24,000 bases of DNA from Clostridiaceae bacterium (lineage in GTDB: Bacteria; Bacillota; Clostridia; Lachnospirales; Lachnospiraceae), in NCBI GenBank assembly GCA_018378255.1, contig JAGZXV010000001.1, positions 58,015 through 82,014 of the forward strand, written 5' to 3'. This document shows positions 2,995 through 22,529 of the stretch, piece after piece. The first letter of the stretch is position 1; each line of letters starts with the position of its first letter. The notes below the pieces were generated by a model. The model saw nothing but the letters and a program-made list of their open reading frames with translations, did not search any database and was not told the DNA's origin. Made by a program: the position numbers and the translations under genes.

Positions 2995-4158
2995 ATGGCT
3001 TGTCAGTTTATAATGCCGAAACAGGTATTTATGGGAGAAGGCGCGTTGGAAATGAGCCGGACGGCTCTTCGGAATCTGGGAAAAAAAGCGCTTATTGTCA
3101 CGGATCAGGTGATGGTTCAGCTTGGCAATGTGAAGAGGCTTACAGACATTCTGGATGAAATCAATGTAAACTATGCTTTGTATCAGGATATAAATGGTGA
3201 ACCAACAGACCGGATGATAGAGGGGGGATTAGCGGTATATCAAAAAGAAGGATGTGACTGTTTAATCGCAGTCGGCGGAGGAAGCCCCATTGATTCCATG
3301 AAGGCAATCGGAGCGGTTGCGGGCAGCGGAGGAAAGATTTCCGATTACATGGGACGGGAAATTAAAGGCCCTGTTCCGCCTATGGCAGCAGTTCCCACAA
3401 CGGCGGGAACCGGATCGGAGGCGACCCAGTTTACAATCATCACTGATACGGAAAAGGATATTAAGATGTTATTAAAAGGCGGCGTTCTGATGCCGGATAT
3501 GGCAATTGTGGATCCTGTTTTTACGATGACGGCTCCGCCCAAGATCACTGCGGCCACAGGTCTGGACGCCCTGACCCACGCCATAGAAGCGTATACTTCC
3601 AGGAAGGTCAATTCCCTTTCCGATTTATATGCGCTTTCCGCTGTTAAGAGGATATTTAAGAATTTGTCTGTCTGTTTCCACGACGGTAGGAACCAGAATG
3701 CCAGAGAAGAGATGTCACTGGCCGCATTCGAAGCAGGAGTGGCTTTTAACAATTCTTCCGTCACGGTAGTACATGGTATGTCCCGGCCAATCGGGGCTTT
3801 ATTCCACGTTGCCCACGGCATTTCCAACGCTATGCTGCTTAAAGCCTGTCTCAGCTATGTGATGGATGGGGCTTATGACAGGTTTGCAGAGCTTGGCAGG
3901 GCCTGCGGCGCGGCCCAAAGCGGTGATTCCGATCAGGAGGCAGCGGAAAAGTTCCTGACAGAGGTAGTGGCCCTTTGCAGAGAACTGGAGATACCGACGC
4001 TTTCCGGCTATGGAATTGATCAGACAGAATTTGTCCGTCTCATGGATAAAATGGCAGATGATGCTTTGGCTTCCGGAAGCCCCTCTAATACCAGAAAGGT
4101 CTTGGGAAAAGAGGATATCCTTAAGATCTATGCAGCTTTGTGGGAGGAAAATGCCTGA
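2995..4158 (+). CDS. Iron-containing (group III) alcohol dehydrogenase
   Basis: 387 aa. Typical Fe-ADH signatures (GGGSPIDSMKAI, TTAGTGSE, metal-binding His region HGMSRPIG...HG). GGAGG upstream. Confidence 0.9.
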   Translation: MACQFIMPKQVFMGEGALEMSRTALRNLGKKALIVTDQVMVQLGNVKRLTDILDEINVNYALYQDINGEPTDRMIEGGLAVYQKEGCDCLIAVGGGSPIDSMKAIGAVAGSGGKISDYMGREIKGPVPPMAAVPTTAGTGSEATQFTIITDTEKDIKMLLKGGVLMPDMAIVDPVFTMTAPPKITAATGLDALTHAIEAYTSRKVNSLSDLYALSAVKRIFKNLSVCFHDGRNQNAREEMSLAAFEAGVAFNNSSVTVVHGMSRPIGALFHVAHGISNAMLLKACLSYVMDGAYDRFAELGRACGAAQSGDSDQEAAEKFLTEVVALCRELEIPTLSGYGIDQTEFVRLMDKMADDALASGSPSNTRKVLGKEDILKIYAALWEENA

Positions 4159-7787: not shown

Positions 7788-7810
7788 TTTCTTTTTTTTT
7801 TTACATGAAG

Positions 7811-7840
7811 CGTGAAGGCATTTTTGAAAATGCCTTCACG
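7811..7840. repeat. Hairpin core of dispersed ~64-nt repeat, copy A (probable operon terminator)
   Basis: CGTGAAGGCATTTT (7811-7824) / AAAATGCCTTCACG (7827-7840), followed by TTTTACTTT. Lies 24 nt after the kinase stop. Confidence 0.7.
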
Positions 7841-7868
7841 TTTTACTTTAAAAGCCCAGGTCATTAGC

Positions 7869-7912
7869 AGTAAAAGGTGAAGGCATTTCGCGAAATGCCT
7901 TCACCTTTTACT
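7869..7912. repeat. Hairpin repeat copy B, a perfect 44-nt palindrome
   Basis: AGTAAAAGGTGAAGGCATTTCG / CGAAATGCCTTCACCTTTTACT. All 22 pairs were checked base by base. It shares the GTGAAGGCATTT...AAATGCCTTCAC core and the TTTTACTTTAAAA tail with copy A. Confidence 0.8.
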
Positions 7913-7995
7913 TTAAAAAAATATTTCCCTCCGGTATAGATCCCCTCTTCCGCGTCAATAATCTCACTAACAGAAACAAATAGGAGATGATTAAT

Positions 7996-11674: not shown

Positions 11675-12853
11675 ATGAGAAATTTTGAGTTTTGTACTCC
11701 TACCAGAGTAGTATTTGGCAAGGATACGCAGAAGAAGGCAGGAAAATTAATCAAAGACTACGGATTTAAAAAGGTTTTAATCCATTACGGCGGCGGAAGT
11801 GTGATACGTTCCGGTTTACTGGACCAGGTGACGGATTCTTTGAAGGAATCGGGAATTGAATATGTGATGCTGGGCGGAGTTCAGCCCAATCCCACTCTTT
11901 CTCTGGCTAAAGAAGGCATTAAACTCTGCCTGGCAGAAGGCGTTGATTTTATCTTAGCTGTAGGCGGCGGAAGCGTAATCGATTCTGCAAAATGTATTGC
12001 AGACGGTGTGGCAAACCCGGATACCGATGTATGGAGATTTTTCACAGGGGAAGAAAGGCTGAGAAAATCTCTTCCTCAGGGCAATGTGCTGACACTGTCG
12101 GCTTCTGGCAGTGAGATGAGCAACTCCTGTGTAATCACCAATGAGGACGGAGGACTGAAACGTGGGCTCAGCTCCCAGCTTCACCGCCCGTTGTTTGCAA
12201 TCTGTAATCCGGAGCTTACCTATACGGTGAGCAAATACCAGACCGGCTGCGGCAGCGTTGATATCATGATGCATACCCTGGAACGCTATCTGGGCGCGGA
12301 TCAGAATACCCCTCTGACAGACCGGATTGCGGAAGGATTGTTAAAGACAGTTGCGGAAGCGGGTAAAATCGCGGATCAGGAACCGGACAACTATGAAGCC
12401 CGCGCCACTCTTATGTGGGCAGGCAGCCTTTCCCACAACAACCTGACAAGCGCCGGCCGTGACTTCTACATGCAGGTACATCAGATGGAGCATGAGCTGT
12501 CCGGTATGTATCCGCAGATATCCCACGGAGCCGGGCTGTCCGCATTATTCTGCACCTGGGCCAGATATGTATGCCCTTATAATGTGAACCGGTTTGCACA
12601 GCTTGCTGTCCGTGTATGGGGAATTGATATGAACTTCGAAGATCCGATGAAGACCGCTTTGGCCGGTATCGATGCATTTGAGAACTTCTTTAAGAGCATA
12701 GGAATGCCGGTCACAATCGGAGAGCTGGGAGTGGAAGAAGACAAGCTGGAAGAGCTGGCGGAAAAATGTACATTCTTCGGCAAGAGGACTTTGCCGGGAA
12801 TTAAGGAATTCGGAAAAGAAGAAATTCTGGAAGTCTACAGACGGGCTATGTAA
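11675..12853 (+). CDS. Iron-containing alcohol dehydrogenase, NAD(P)H butanol-dehydrogenase/YqhD-like
   Basis: 392 aa. The N-terminus FEF..PTRVVFG..., GGGSVIDSAKCIA and the His-rich metal site are typical of the Bdh/YqhD subfamily. GAGGAGG RBS upstream. Confidence 0.9.
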   Translation: MRNFEFCTPTRVVFGKDTQKKAGKLIKDYGFKKVLIHYGGGSVIRSGLLDQVTDSLKESGIEYVMLGGVQPNPTLSLAKEGIKLCLAEGVDFILAVGGGSVIDSAKCIADGVANPDTDVWRFFTGEERLRKSLPQGNVLTLSASGSEMSNSCVITNEDGGLKRGLSSQLHRPLFAICNPELTYTVSKYQTGCGSVDIMMHTLERYLGADQNTPLTDRIAEGLLKTVAEAGKIADQEPDNYEARATLMWAGSLSHNNLTSAGRDFYMQVHQMEHELSGMYPQISHGAGLSALFCTWARYVCPYNVNRFAQLAVRVWGIDMNFEDPMKTALAGIDAFENFFKSIGMPVTIGELGVEEDKLEELAEKCTFFGKRTLPGIKEFGKEEILEVYRRAM

Positions 12854-12894
12854 AATAAAGGGGAATCTTTATTTGAGTTATTGGTGGGAGTAAC

Positions 12895-13080
12895 GCCTGT
12901 AAGAAGGGAAACCTGGGGCAAAGGGCAAGGCCAGGCGGCCAAAGGGGCGGACCAAAGGTGACGGGGATCTGATTTCGACCGTTAAGTGGAACGGTCTCCA
13001 TAGGATCCCCGTCACCTTTGAACTGTACCCCTTTGGCCGCCTGGCCTTGCCCTTTGCCCCAGGTTCCCCTTCTTACAGGC
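12895..13080. repeat. Long imperfect palindrome E1 (186 nt), unclassified; candidate structured RNA or palindromic repeat element
   Basis: Checked base by base. 53-bp outer stem (12895-12947 / 13028-13080) with one A-C mismatch. Then a 5/7 internal loop, a 17-bp stem (12953-12969 / 13004-13020), a 7/7 internal loop, and a 7-bp stem GACCGTT/AACGGTC with loop AAGTGG. Confidence 0.9.
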
Positions 13081-13219
13081 TGTGTATTGGCTGCATTAAG
13101 GATAAAAAAGATTTTGGAAAAGGGAAAAAAGAAAATATAGTTTGATTGATGGGATATTGGACTTTTATGCGGAACATGACATGGAGATTTGATGTAAATG
13201 ACGTGGGGATTGACATTAA

Positions 13220-13253
13220 AACGTGAAGGCTTTTTCGAAAATGCCTTCACGTT
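13220..13253. repeat. Hairpin core of dispersed ~64-nt repeat, copy C
   Basis: AACGTGAAGGC.TTTT / AAAA.GCCTTCACGTT. The 64 nt at 13198-13261 match the reverse complement of 7801-7864 at 52 of 64 ungapped positions (counted by hand). Confidence 0.8.
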
Positions 13254-13316
13254 CGATGTTAAATTTATTTACAATTCTCAAAATTGTTTTTTGATCCCTT
13301 GCTCCAGAGAAAACCA

Positions 13317-13636
13317 GCAGGGAAGCGGGGAGGGCGGAGAAGCAGGGCGGGAACCTGAACGGAGGAATCAAACGATACAGGGGGCGTGTGGAAACCGTTT
13401 AGTGGAACTTAGGCTTCCAGCATGAAAAAAGGCGGGCAGAAACTGAAAACCGAATCAGTTTCTGAGATGCCCCTGAGCGGTAAAGTCATGAGGAGTTTAC
13501 CGTGAATGGGCATCGCACCGCCTTTTTTCATGCTGGGAGCCTTAGTTCCACTTAACGGTTGGAACCAGATCCCTGTATCGTTTGGTTCCTCCGTTCAGGT
13601 TCCCGCCCTGCTTCTCCGCCCTCCCCGCTTCCCTGC
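13317..13636. repeat. Long imperfect palindrome E2 (320 nt) with three-way-junction apex, unclassified; candidate structured RNA (plus strand favoured)
   Basis: Checked base by base. 66-bp outer stem (13317-13382 / 13571-13636) with a single U-G. A 10/10 asymmetric block (13383-13392 / 13561-13570). A 43-position inner stem (13393-13435 / 13518-13560) with 2 U-U and 1 U-G. An 82-nt apex holding two hairpins. Confidence 0.9.
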
Positions 13637-13675
13637 GTAACTCCTGCGTAACGTTCTCATTTAACTCTCAATTTT

Positions 13676-14482
13676 TTATATTAATTCAATAATTTCCCCA
13701 TCATCAGGAACAAATAATTTCCCTTCATAAAACGCCCGCCCTTCATTAAGATAGCGCTCTTTTCTATTCTCAATCGTCTTATCTTCCGTATGCCACAGCA
13801 CCAGATTCTGGATTCCCATTTCACCGGCCAGCTGGCAGGCGTCTTTTACTGTGCTGTGATGTTTTTCGTATGGATTGAACCGTTCCCTGTCTTCATATAA
13901 GCAGAACGCCTCGTGCAGCAGCCAATTGCTGCCGGAAACATGGGGCTCGCATTTGGGATTGTAGGGTTCATCGCCGGCGCAGGTCAGCTTCCGGCCGTTT
14001 TTTAACGTGGTGGTAAAGCCGTACTGCTTCGCTTTTGTAGAGTGAATATCGAAGAAAGTCACGTCATAATCCAGGATTTTGCGGGTTTCTCCATCGTGGA
14101 CGGGGATCAGGTGAATTCTGTCACCGATCATTTTATAGAATTTTCCCTGGACTGTGAGCCTGCATAAGGTATCGATGGTTGAAGTCAGGTCTTCGTGGCA
14201 GTAGATGTTGAGATCGCCCTCGTAAATTCCGTTTTTCATCCGGGTGGCAATCATTCGGATCATCCAGATGATGCCCAGAATGTGATCGGTATGTTCATGA
14301 GTGATGAAGATATGGTGTATCTGTTCCATTTTAATGCCCATGTCTTCCAGAATACGCAGGATTCCGTTGCCGCCTCCTGCGTCAACCATAAAAAACTGTT
14401 CATCGTCTTTCAACGCAAAACAGGTATTGTAGCAGCGGGTAACGGTGGCGTTGCCGGTTCCTAACACATATAATTGTTCCAT
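13676..14482 (-). CDS. MBL-fold metallo-hydrolase
   Basis: HxHxDH motif (THEHTDH). The start is taken at MEQLYVLGTG (ATG 14482) because AGGAG lies 10 nt upstream. The ORF-track start at 14542 has no RBS. Confidence 0.85.
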   Translation of the reverse strand: MEQLYVLGTGNATVTRCYNTCFALKDDEQFFMVDAGGGNGILRILEDMGIKMEQIHHIFITHEHTDHILGIIWMIRMIATRMKNGIYEGDLNIYCHEDLTSTIDTLCRLTVQGKFYKMIGDRIHLIPVHDGETRKILDYDVTFFDIHSTKAKQYGFTTTLKNGRKLTCAGDEPYNPKCEPHVSGSNWLLHEAFCLYEDRERFNPYEKHHSTVKDACQLAGEMGIQNLVLWHTEDKTIENRKERYLNEGRAFYEGKLFVPDDGEIIELI

Positions 14483-14672
14483 GTCCTTATTTCTCCTTTC
14501 AATCCCTTTTGGGGAGCTTGTACCCTCGTAAAAACTTTCCATTTAACCGATTCTATGGTACTATAAACTTATTATAAATGCAACTGCTCTTGAATTTCCG
14601 CCCGATTTCCATTGCCCCAGGGCTCTTAAAAGACGGGCGGAAGGCTGAGAACTGCTGTGAGGGGAGGTACGC

Positions 14673-22294: not shown

Positions 22295-22529
22295 AACAAA
22301 GCTGTGGCATGATAGCTGTGAAGCGTGAGGTTGCTGCCCGATGTGGTAGGTGTTCCGTGGAGCGAATGTCAAGTTAGGAAACTGGCGACAAGTCACTGTA
22401 CAATTTACTAAAGTTCTAGCAGATATGTGGGAATTTGTGTGTGGATCTATGAGGACACACACGGGAACGTGTACAGTCACCGCTTGTCGTACTTCGAGTA
22501 ATAAGTGCGAAAAGGAGGCGACTTTTTTT

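Follow-up and report, generated by a model that had tools for sequence, protein, structure and literature searches.

A large modular hairpin repeat with covarying stems at gene ends in gut Clostridia

REPINs and BIMEs are doublets of REP sequences, thought to be mobilised by RAYT tyrosine transposases, that occur in many intergenic copies as two inverted palindromic units joined by a linker, form a hairpin as single-stranded DNA or as RNA, and persist over long times by vertical inheritance with turnover. Compensatory changes within a mobile hairpin have already been described for REPINs, which have conserved ends and a variable, compensated interior (PMC3116915). We looked into a 24,000-nucleotide (nt) stretch of DNA from a Clostridiaceae bacterium (assembly GCA_018378255.1, contig JAGZXV010000001.1, positions 58,015 to 82,014; termed the window), in which an 822-nt composite, made of two giant hairpins (E1 and E2) separated by a 236-nt spacer, fills a whole intergenic gap (window positions 12854-13675). 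Comparison with other copies showed that the composite belongs to a multicopy modular hairpin repeat, which is gained, lost or replaced at gene ends with strong structural conservation. We consider it somewhat probable that this is a lineage-specific dispersed repeat, selfish or domesticated, of the REPIN/BIME/ERIC kind and several times larger, with stems that would be templated, an apex and loops that would be read by a protein, and probable transcription.

By analogy, the family is most like REPINs in its behavior: it shares with them the multicopy intergenic state, the two inverted units with a linker, the capacity to fold as single-stranded DNA or RNA, the conserved ends around a variable but compensated interior, and vertical persistence with turnover. 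REPINs, however, measure ∼70 to 110 nt, with REP palindromes of ∼20 to 35 nt that carry a GTAG-type head, whereas the modules described here have 330 to 410 nt and no such head, the conserved motif at their foot being GCGTAAC. Also unlike REPINs, they have a conserved branched apex, purine-rich internal loops, an internal promoter-like site and a Firmicute host, and we found no RAYT gene in the window or in the retrieved loci.

The ERIC/IRU, BOX, RUP, Correia and bcr1 repeats are dispersed non-coding sequences at gene ends, which form stable hairpins, are often co-transcribed and in some cases compensated, and have a mostly unknown or modulatory function. Repeats of the ERIC/BOX type span 100 to 200 nt, usually with short terminal inverted repeats, a target-site duplication and much less perfect stems. 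None is known to have near-perfect stems of 70 to 130 bp, an apex in the form of a three-way junction, or paired modules facing outward.

In the window, the composite lies between two convergent genes, which encode an iron alcohol dehydrogenase (ADH; 11675-12853, plus strand) and an MBL-fold hydrolase (13676-14542, minus strand), and it abuts the stop codons of both (12851-12853 and 13676-13678). Taking as the sense strand of a module the one that corresponds to the plus strand of E2, with the GCGTAAC tail at its 3' end, we describe the window copy as follows.

12854-12894, minus strand: outer tail of the b-type module (its 3' tail in sense orientation), directly following the ADH stop codon; it contains a mini-hairpin (AAATAAAG/CTTTATTT) and the family-wide GCGTAAC, seen as GTTAC on the plus strand at 12890-12894
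12895-13080, minus strand: E1, a b-type giant hairpin minus its apex (from folds and an inverted-repeat search), with an outer stem (12895-12948/13027-13080), a second stem (12952-12969/13004-13021), a purine-rich internal loop and a core helix (12977-12983/12990-12996)
13081-13219, minus strand: b-side leader, the AT-rich half of the central spacer (from the alignment of the spacer to MCC353 composites)
13220-13253, no strand: small palindrome (SP), AACGTGAAGGCTTTTTCGAAAATGCCTTCACGTT, a separate short repeat that supplies the -35 box
13246-13275, plus strand: sigma-A/sigma-70-like promoter match, TTCACG-18-TACAAT, pointing into E2 (consensus match only)
13254-13316, plus strand: a-side leader, with AAAATTG and TTTAATT-type segments that can pair with the tail (from the leader alignment)
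13317-13636, plus strand: E2, a full-length a-type giant hairpin (from folds and covariation)
13317-13383/13570-13636: outer stem of E2, 67 bp
13384-13392/13561-13569: asymmetric purine-rich internal loop of E2
13393-13409/13544-13560: core helix of E2
13411-13435/13518-13542: inner variable stem of E2
13436-13517: apical three-way junction of E2, with hairpins at 13437-13464 and 13466-13514, the latter containing a CUGAR/YGAAU tandem G.A motif
13637-13675, plus strand: outer tail of the a-type module, GCGTAAC followed by ...CAATTTTTT, running to the MBL stop codon

The motif of the a-type tail is found in an 11-nt tandem duplication right after the E2 stem (CTGCGTAACTC at 13633-13643 and CTGCGTAACGT at 13644-13654).

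The arms of E1 (53 nt) are 98% complementary and those of E2 (119 nt) are 91% complementary. Fold energies are -167.9 (plus strand) and -170.7 (minus strand) kcal/mol for E1, with z about -20, and -271.3 (plus) and -254.4 (minus) kcal/mol for E2, with z of -26 and -24, and no shuffled sequence was as low in either case. The core ACCGTTAAGTGGAAC occurs at 12978-12992 on the plus strand in E1 and at 13545-13559 on the minus strand in E2, and a copy with one mismatch is located at 13394-13408, on the opposite side of the E2 stem; the chance expectation is 0.39 matches even when 3 mismatches are allowed. E1 and E2 share an inverted match of 51 nt, which is 78% complementary. An earlier note on this DNA, whose sequence strings were all verified at their coordinates, had proposed that the two are related in inverted orientation, and both the core on opposite strands and the 51-nt match bear this out. 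It had also assigned E2 to the plus strand and E1 to the minus strand, in agreement with the 4 G.U and 0 A.C pairs of E2 read on the plus strand and with the slightly better fold of E1 on the minus strand. Other proposals needed adjustment. The asymmetric purine-rich loop is indeed kept in both copies, but the sizes reported for it (7/7 and 10/10) are only approximate, the minimum-free-energy fold having 2- to 4-nt loops broken by 2 bp at these places. The outer stems are self-complementary and divergent, as claimed, but not unrelated, as they are ∼75% identical within subfamilies and ∼57% over all copies. The contrast drawn with miniature inverted-repeat transposable elements (MITEs) was overstated: the apex is kept, but the foot of the hairpin and the ∼30-nt tail beyond it are conserved as well, and only the middle of the stem varies. 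We also correct the way in which E1 and E2 were seen: they are two modules of a single composite, always facing outward from a shared spacer.

A search of 185,579 species representatives (one genome per species) with a 24-nt core pattern returned 19 matches, namely a chance match and 18 loci that all belong to Clostridium sp. MCC353. We read ∼30 giant hairpins in those 18 loci, in unrelated contexts. Using as a query a spurious frame that crosses the apex, we retrieved 54 predicted "hypothetical proteins" originating from at least 25 MCC353 loci, from at least 7 loci of a metagenome-assembled genome labelled Clostridiaceae bacterium and from many metagenome contigs of 0.5 to 0.8 kb; diverged relatives of the family were found in two further species. 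Stems and apexes distinguish four subfamilies, a (E2-like), b (E1-like), c (with a variant apex) and d, the last of which has a wholly different branched apex on the common foot and tail and stems of up to ∼130 bp. Given the d-type modules, the apex looks like an exchangeable part. In two d-type examples (L005 7045-7405 and L018 6311-6718; retrieved loci and contigs are designated by L numbers), the foot, the tail and the orientation rule are the same and the apical three-way junction is unrelated.

The core is widespread in related genomes, and neither a known insertion sequence (IS) or prophage nor an Rfam family contains the copies. At Rfam gathering thresholds, the only match in the window lies outside the hairpins (see below), and permissive thresholds of Rfam 15 returned only models of plant and animal microRNA precursors (85.8 bits, for a gathering threshold of 137, on both strands), which are a generic artefact of long hairpins; the view that the element falls in no known RNA class was therefore upheld. 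BLAST of the whole unit gave no match in plasmid or phage collections. A scan of JGI metagenomes with an MCC353-type apex pattern gave no match, and a scan with a cross-species apex pattern gave one, a chance match to a GC-rich sequence without a hairpin, so the family appears to be confined to a small clade. A viral scan with the 15-mer core was discarded, as it gave at least 120 chance matches, many apparently in one recurrent long open reading frame (ORF).

An antisense open frame of ∼51 codons spans the apex in most copies and is annotated as hypothetical proteins in MCC353, which is a point in favor of reading the element as a gene for a small apex protein. It is barely credible that such a gene, a local one-off inverted duplication or an assembly artefact accounts for our observations: independent assemblies and isolates contain dozens of copies, 1-nt loop indels shift the frame in 3 of 20 copies (L015_a, L016_b and L019_b) while the pairing is kept, and the frame is closed in the homologue of L150 (read by eye), from a GC-richer species. 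Frames inside the hairpins have been called as genes in the window (13409-13531, minus strand; 13198-13425, plus strand), in MCC353 (P0126-P0173) and, for a 75-aa product, at the locus in scaffold L140. A hammerhead ribozyme, suggested by CTGATGA in the apex, was rejected, as this motif lies in a variable terminal loop (with CTCATGA and TTTATGG variants) and no Rfam ribozyme matched.

Evaluation of the architecture of the composites revealed that the spacer of the window is 74 to 76% identical, over its full length, to MCC353 spacers in L002, L004, L007 and L019, and that the hairpins are paired as a+b (window, L004, L007 and L019), a+c, b+c, d+b or a+d. In every pair, the sense strand of each module points away from the spacer, which accounts for the inverted orientation of E1 and E2. 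The outer tails of the two modules form imperfect terminal inverted repeats of ∼30 nt (AAT..ATTT..TTGG..AAGTTACGC), followed by the homologous hairpins. Every module comprises a conserved tail with GCGTAAC, a conserved foot, a stem of 50 to 100 bp, the conserved purine-rich internal loop, a core helix and a branched apex that is conserved too. Intact modules have ∼330 to 410 nt and composites 0.75 to 1.3 kb, and three copies are devoid of an apex (E1, L012 2940-3130 and L004 2354-2410). The spacer contains an SP of 28 to 34 nt.

We then analyzed the conservation of the structure. RNAalifold predicted 127 pairs from 20 copies, 73 of which have changed on both sides. Paired cells amounted to 95.9%, versus 80.8% with shuffled partners and 38 to 54% with slid partners. 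On four of five measures, not one of 500 shuffles matched the real alignment, and on the fifth a single shuffle did so. When four species are compared, 54 of the 96 pairs show covariation, among them short apex helices and the "core" of the earlier note, which is itself a helix. Between a-type modules, pairwise identity rises from 75% in the outer stem to 88% in the inner stem, and reaches 96.6% for the apex pairs and 96% for the asymmetric loop. Outer stems that are only 75% identical between copies are yet 97 to 100% paired within each copy, where the two arms align without gaps and with 0 to 2 transition mismatches. Across copies, the arms range from 64 to 105 bp, segments of 8 to 20 nt have been lost or gained on both arms together (e.g., L011, L018 and L010_c), and one-sided (G.U) intermediate states are very rare. 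Overall, the stems evolve more than six times faster than the apex and probably also faster than the unpaired leader.

Quasipalindrome template switching is known to convert imperfect inverted repeats into perfect ones by copying one arm during DNA synthesis, and it predicts mirrored substitutions and indels, as documented at single loci (PMC7202029, PMC3820800). We infer that single-pair selection can neither hold a helix of 75 bp perfect against substitutions this frequent nor mirror its indels, and that DNA-level copying of one arm from the other can explain both the perfect stems and the mirrored indels. This bears on the possibility that the modules are true non-coding RNA genes, in which a promoter would drive the synthesis of a rod-shaped RNA whose apex and loops bind a protein, duplication would account for the copies, and RNA-level selection would preserve the paired stems, for instance as an RNase III processing stalk. 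RNase III stalks and pri-miRNA-like hairpins do resemble the family, as they have a long, perfect duplex, free to vary, beside a conserved structured part, and cross-species covariation that reaches the short helices of the apex fits an RNA gene. Fast-evolving stems that are 97 to 100% Watson-Crick paired with almost no G.U do not, nor do indels of 8 to 20 nt mirrored on both arms, for which single-pair selection in a 75-bp helix is too weak.

The two strands are not equivalent. In sense orientation, mismatches in the outer arms comprise 20 G.T versus 5 A.C (binomial P of about 0.004), and the whole structure of 16 a and b copies contains 40 G.U versus 8 A.C. Against its own proposal, the earlier note had set outer stems explained by self-templated palindrome repair, with no strand bias in their mismatches; a bias is present. 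The G.T excess is seen in both members of divergent pairs, each in its own sense orientation, which rules out a replication-strand bias as its cause. On the sense strand, purines predominate in the unpaired parts that are conserved, and these would be pyrimidine mismatches on the other. A GGA/GGA 3x3 loop adjoins the core helix, its closing pair covarying between A-U and G-C, and the CUGAR/YGAAU tandem G.A motif in one arm of the apex is kept in MCC353, Clostridium sp. chh4-2 and L150, with a covarying flank. A CUGAA[helix]UGAAU arrangement was also read by eye in the d-type apex, which is otherwise unrelated to that of a, b and c. Taken together, the wobble bias and the conserved G.A motifs are suggestive of the outward-reading strand being the functional one.

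Upstream of every a-type module examined, we found a TTGACG/TTCACG-18-TATAAT/TACAAT sequence (10 to 11 of 12 consensus matches), always pointing into the module (window 13246-13275, L019, L014 and L018, with further examples); its -35 box corresponds to the end of the SP. On the b side, we retained no promoter, a TGnCATrAT-like motif being only weakly conserved and not called by the scanner. Read by eye, AAAATTG..TTTAATT in the leader can pair with AATTAAA..CAATTTT in the tail, a pairing absent from the minimum-free-energy fold of the window copy, and the equivalent leader/tail pair in the b-like module of chh4-2 has one compensated change. The tails end in a T-run in some copies only. Judging from these sequence signs, outward transcription of the modules is plausible.

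The conserved promoter match upstream of all a-type modules, the wobble bias and G.A motifs specific to the outward strand, and the presence of CUGAA[helix]UGAAU in two otherwise unrelated apex types (by eye) are further points in favor of RNA genes. Besides the behavior of the stems, however, this reading has to face the persistence of apex-less derivatives, b, c and d modules without a recognizable promoter, and dozens of copies per genome with presence/absence turnover; we regard it as possible but doubtful. A further reading, which we consider rather unlikely, treats each module as a self-contained mobile gene that has its own promoter and encodes a rod-shaped RNA of ∼0.4 kb. Its long perfect stalk would be copied from arm to arm in the DNA, and RNase III would cut it, freeing a conserved branched apex RNA that would bind a dedicated protein through its G.A-rich loops. 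If this were true, cutting might also free small GA-rich and CU-rich duplex RNAs, and the family would represent, in bacteria, something comparable to pri-miRNA-like or SINE-like RNA elements, as well as a new class of large structured RNAs able to propagate within genomes.

We looked into the position of the composites relative to genes. In 13 cases, the end of the composite lies within -29 to +4 nt of the flanking stop codon, and the 9 other ends are located 34 to 162 nt upstream of gene starts. Composites abutting stop codons, the convergent genes around the window copy, hairpins that are extremely stable on both strands and the single module of L150 in the MBL 3' region would all suit a cis-acting element, i.e., a bidirectional transcription barrier or a stabilizer of mRNA 3' ends as proposed for REP/BIME, ERIC and BOX, for which spread would be secondary. 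We nevertheless judge this to be quite unlikely, as 9 ends face gene starts, no hairpin-plus-U-run terminator was detected at the window copy, chh4-2 and more distant relatives manage with ∼110 nt between the same two genes, and the conserved apex, the loops and the outward rule would be left unexplained.

Comparison of orthologous sites documented gain, loss or replacement. The gap between the ADH and MBL genes, of 822 nt in the window, has 111 nt in chh4-2 (ADH 93% identical), where it holds only two SPs, and 110 nt in two further lineages (L154 and L152). In MCC353 (ADH 95% identical), a c-type module follows the ADH stop codon at the same junction as in the window and the contig ends inside its apex. 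The b-type tail is kept in the b, c and d modules of MCC353 and is missing from the empty site of chh4-2. In L150 (ADH 83% identical), a single diverged module occupies the ADH-MBL site in the same orientation; the site contains no SP, spacer or second module, and a direct repeat (GAGGGGATCGCATGAGCTGGGG twice, L150 6524-6575) separates the diverged hairpin from the MBL stop codon. The reverse pattern is found in the PfkB-PemK gap, where chh4-2 has a b-like giant hairpin beside SPs and the window and MCC353 have SPs only. Between the filled and the empty ADH-MBL sites, the entire intergenic segment has been replaced, which is not a simple insertion.

Variation between close strains also affects the element. 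Of the six contigs coding for this exact ADH, five break off within the element, as is usual for repeats. The earlier note had seen in E1 an E2-type element without its interior, and where the window has E1, contig L142, whose strain has an identical ADH protein, carries a full-length b hairpin with its apex at the same site. E1 is thus a recent strain-level deletion of the palindromic interior, with a GGAAC|GGT junction that shows AAC microhomology, and exemplifies the decay of composites by apex deletion. Such a clean loss indicates that the hairpin forms in vivo. Strains that are 0.5% apart over the 3 kb upstream differ at 2 to 3 positions in the first 100 nt of E1 (small numbers). An adjacent GG-to-AA difference at 12923-12924, in the 5' arm of E1, separates strains with identical ADH proteins in a comparison of the window with L141, L142, L144 and L145. 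The templating model predicts that strains with AA at 12923-12924 would have CCTTGCTTTTTGCCCC as the E1 3' arm; in the available contigs from the GG-to-AA strains, this arm is unreadable, as they end within the repeat.

We also weighed whether a known mobile element (IS110, IS200/IS605, a MITE of a known IS, a prophage or an integron site) could have supplied the hairpins, as its ends or remnants, and we deem this very improbable. In its favor, an IS110-family transposase element is located beside a hairpin apex in contig L157 (JAGZSD010000047.1, labelled Anaerostipes sp.), and the absence of target-site duplications fits IS110 or IS200/IS605 chemistry. TTAC is the target of IS608, and the conserved GTTAC at the hairpin foot resembles it. 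The element of L157 (1-191 and 611-1888; DEDD_Tnp_IS110 and Transposase_20), however, interrupts the apex in the middle of a helix, after CAGTTTCTGCC, so the hairpin is its target and not its end; IS110-family elements favor repeated palindromes as targets. The L157 contig is only 2 kb long and may be mis-binned. Moreover, Rfam and the phage and plasmid collections gave no match, no transposase was found near ∼30 copies, and the asymmetric features lie on opposite strands in the two modules, unlike in IS200/IS605 ends. We found no autonomous IS with the same ends in the window or beside the ∼30 MCC353 copies (∼140 kb), and an all-against-all ORF comparison of the MCC353 loci showed no recurring neighbor protein.

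We return to the dispersed repeat of the REPIN/BIME/ERIC kind. We propose that it would spread or be exchanged as DNA by a non-duplicating mechanism, candidates being a recombinase or transposase recognizing the folded single strand, or homologous replacement between copies. Intrastrand templated repair, by quasipalindrome template switching or arm-to-arm conversion, and not selection on each pair, would keep its two arms complementary, which would explain substitutions and indels on both arms. The apex and the loops would be under purifying selection on the outward-reading strand, as a site read by a protein. A rod-shaped RNA of ∼0.35 to 0.45 kb is probably transcribed from this strand, at least by way of the a-type promoter.

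Several observations weigh against this proposal. No transposition event was observed, and no target-site duplication was seen by eye at either junction of the window copy, L007 or L019. That the same site is occupied in three species could be due to old vertical inheritance combined with loss, or to replacement, instead of insertion, and no transposase, reverse transcriptase or integrase recurs beside the ∼30 copies (∼140 kb of MCC353). With regard to transcription, the promoter scan returned no match for b, c or d modules and there is no clear terminator (0 terminator-like sites in 12700-13800). In the case of L150, it is the opposite strand of the hairpin that has the slightly better fold, which makes the wobble evidence suggestive and not decisive. 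Finally, templated repair should also erase the internal loops and the U.U mismatches unless selection restores them; the model therefore needs templated repair as well as selection.

We compared the family with other hairpin-based systems, and it lacks the tested features of Rfam families, classical MITEs, REPINs, attC sites, retrons, bridge RNAs and intrinsic terminators. Of the features of MITEs, terminal inverted repeats are present and a target-site duplication was not seen. Like the modules, attC sites have a variable sequence and a conserved hairpin structure, a few unpaired bases marking the functional strand, and they are read by their recombinase as folded single-stranded DNA. They differ in having 57 to 141 nt, R''/L''-L'/R' boxes at the base of the hairpin and same-orientation cassette arrays beside intI, none of which is found here. 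As for retrons, the neighbors of the hairpins are genes for Fe-ADH and an MBL-fold hydrolase, and the window encodes no reverse transcriptase; with respect to IS110 bridge or seek RNAs, it encodes no DEDD transposase, and the IS of L157 interrupts the hairpin. No short GC-rich hairpin followed by a U-run, as in intrinsic terminators, was detected in 12700-13800. Quasipalindrome template switching is a hotspot phenomenon of single short loci and has not been described as maintaining a repeat family with arms of 70 to 130 bp.

We consider the interest of the family to be moderate to high, owing to how extensively its pairs covary, to arms that evolve in concert and to a possible new large RNA. 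Found in gut Clostridia near Enterocloster, it would add a large, strongly covarying structured element (73 covarying pairs among the copies of one genome) that neither Rfam nor the IS and MITE catalogues contain. Stems of 70 to 130 bp that diverge as fast as neutral sequence and yet remain perfect point to genome-wide arm-to-arm templating, a process studied so far only at single mutational hotspots. In practice, the repeats break short-read assemblies and create dozens of spurious "hypothetical proteins" in RefSeq-type annotation, and the spurious apex proteins are useful handles for finding copies in protein databases. If outward transcripts exist, the cultivable isolate MCC353 would offer a new system of protein-RNA or protein-single-stranded DNA recognition.

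The SP is a separate short repeat (GTSAAGGCATTTTCGAAAATGCCTTSAC) with palindromic flanks of up to ∼60 nt, which occurs alone or in tandem after genes. We found it at 7795-7921 and 13220-13253 in the window, at 5714-5824 in L148, at 992-1073 in L146, and at 3152-3249 and 6483-6579 in L009. It sits at the center of every composite and is also present in chh4-2 sites without giant hairpins, and it may be a REP-like terminator repeat or a landing site for the giant modules. The rest of the window is occupied by housekeeping genes, with no transposase, integrase or reverse transcriptase encoded in it. The Rfam match mentioned above is an S10-Clostridia ribosomal protein leader (RF03136) at 22310-22391, with 87.3 bits, which places the window in Clostridia.

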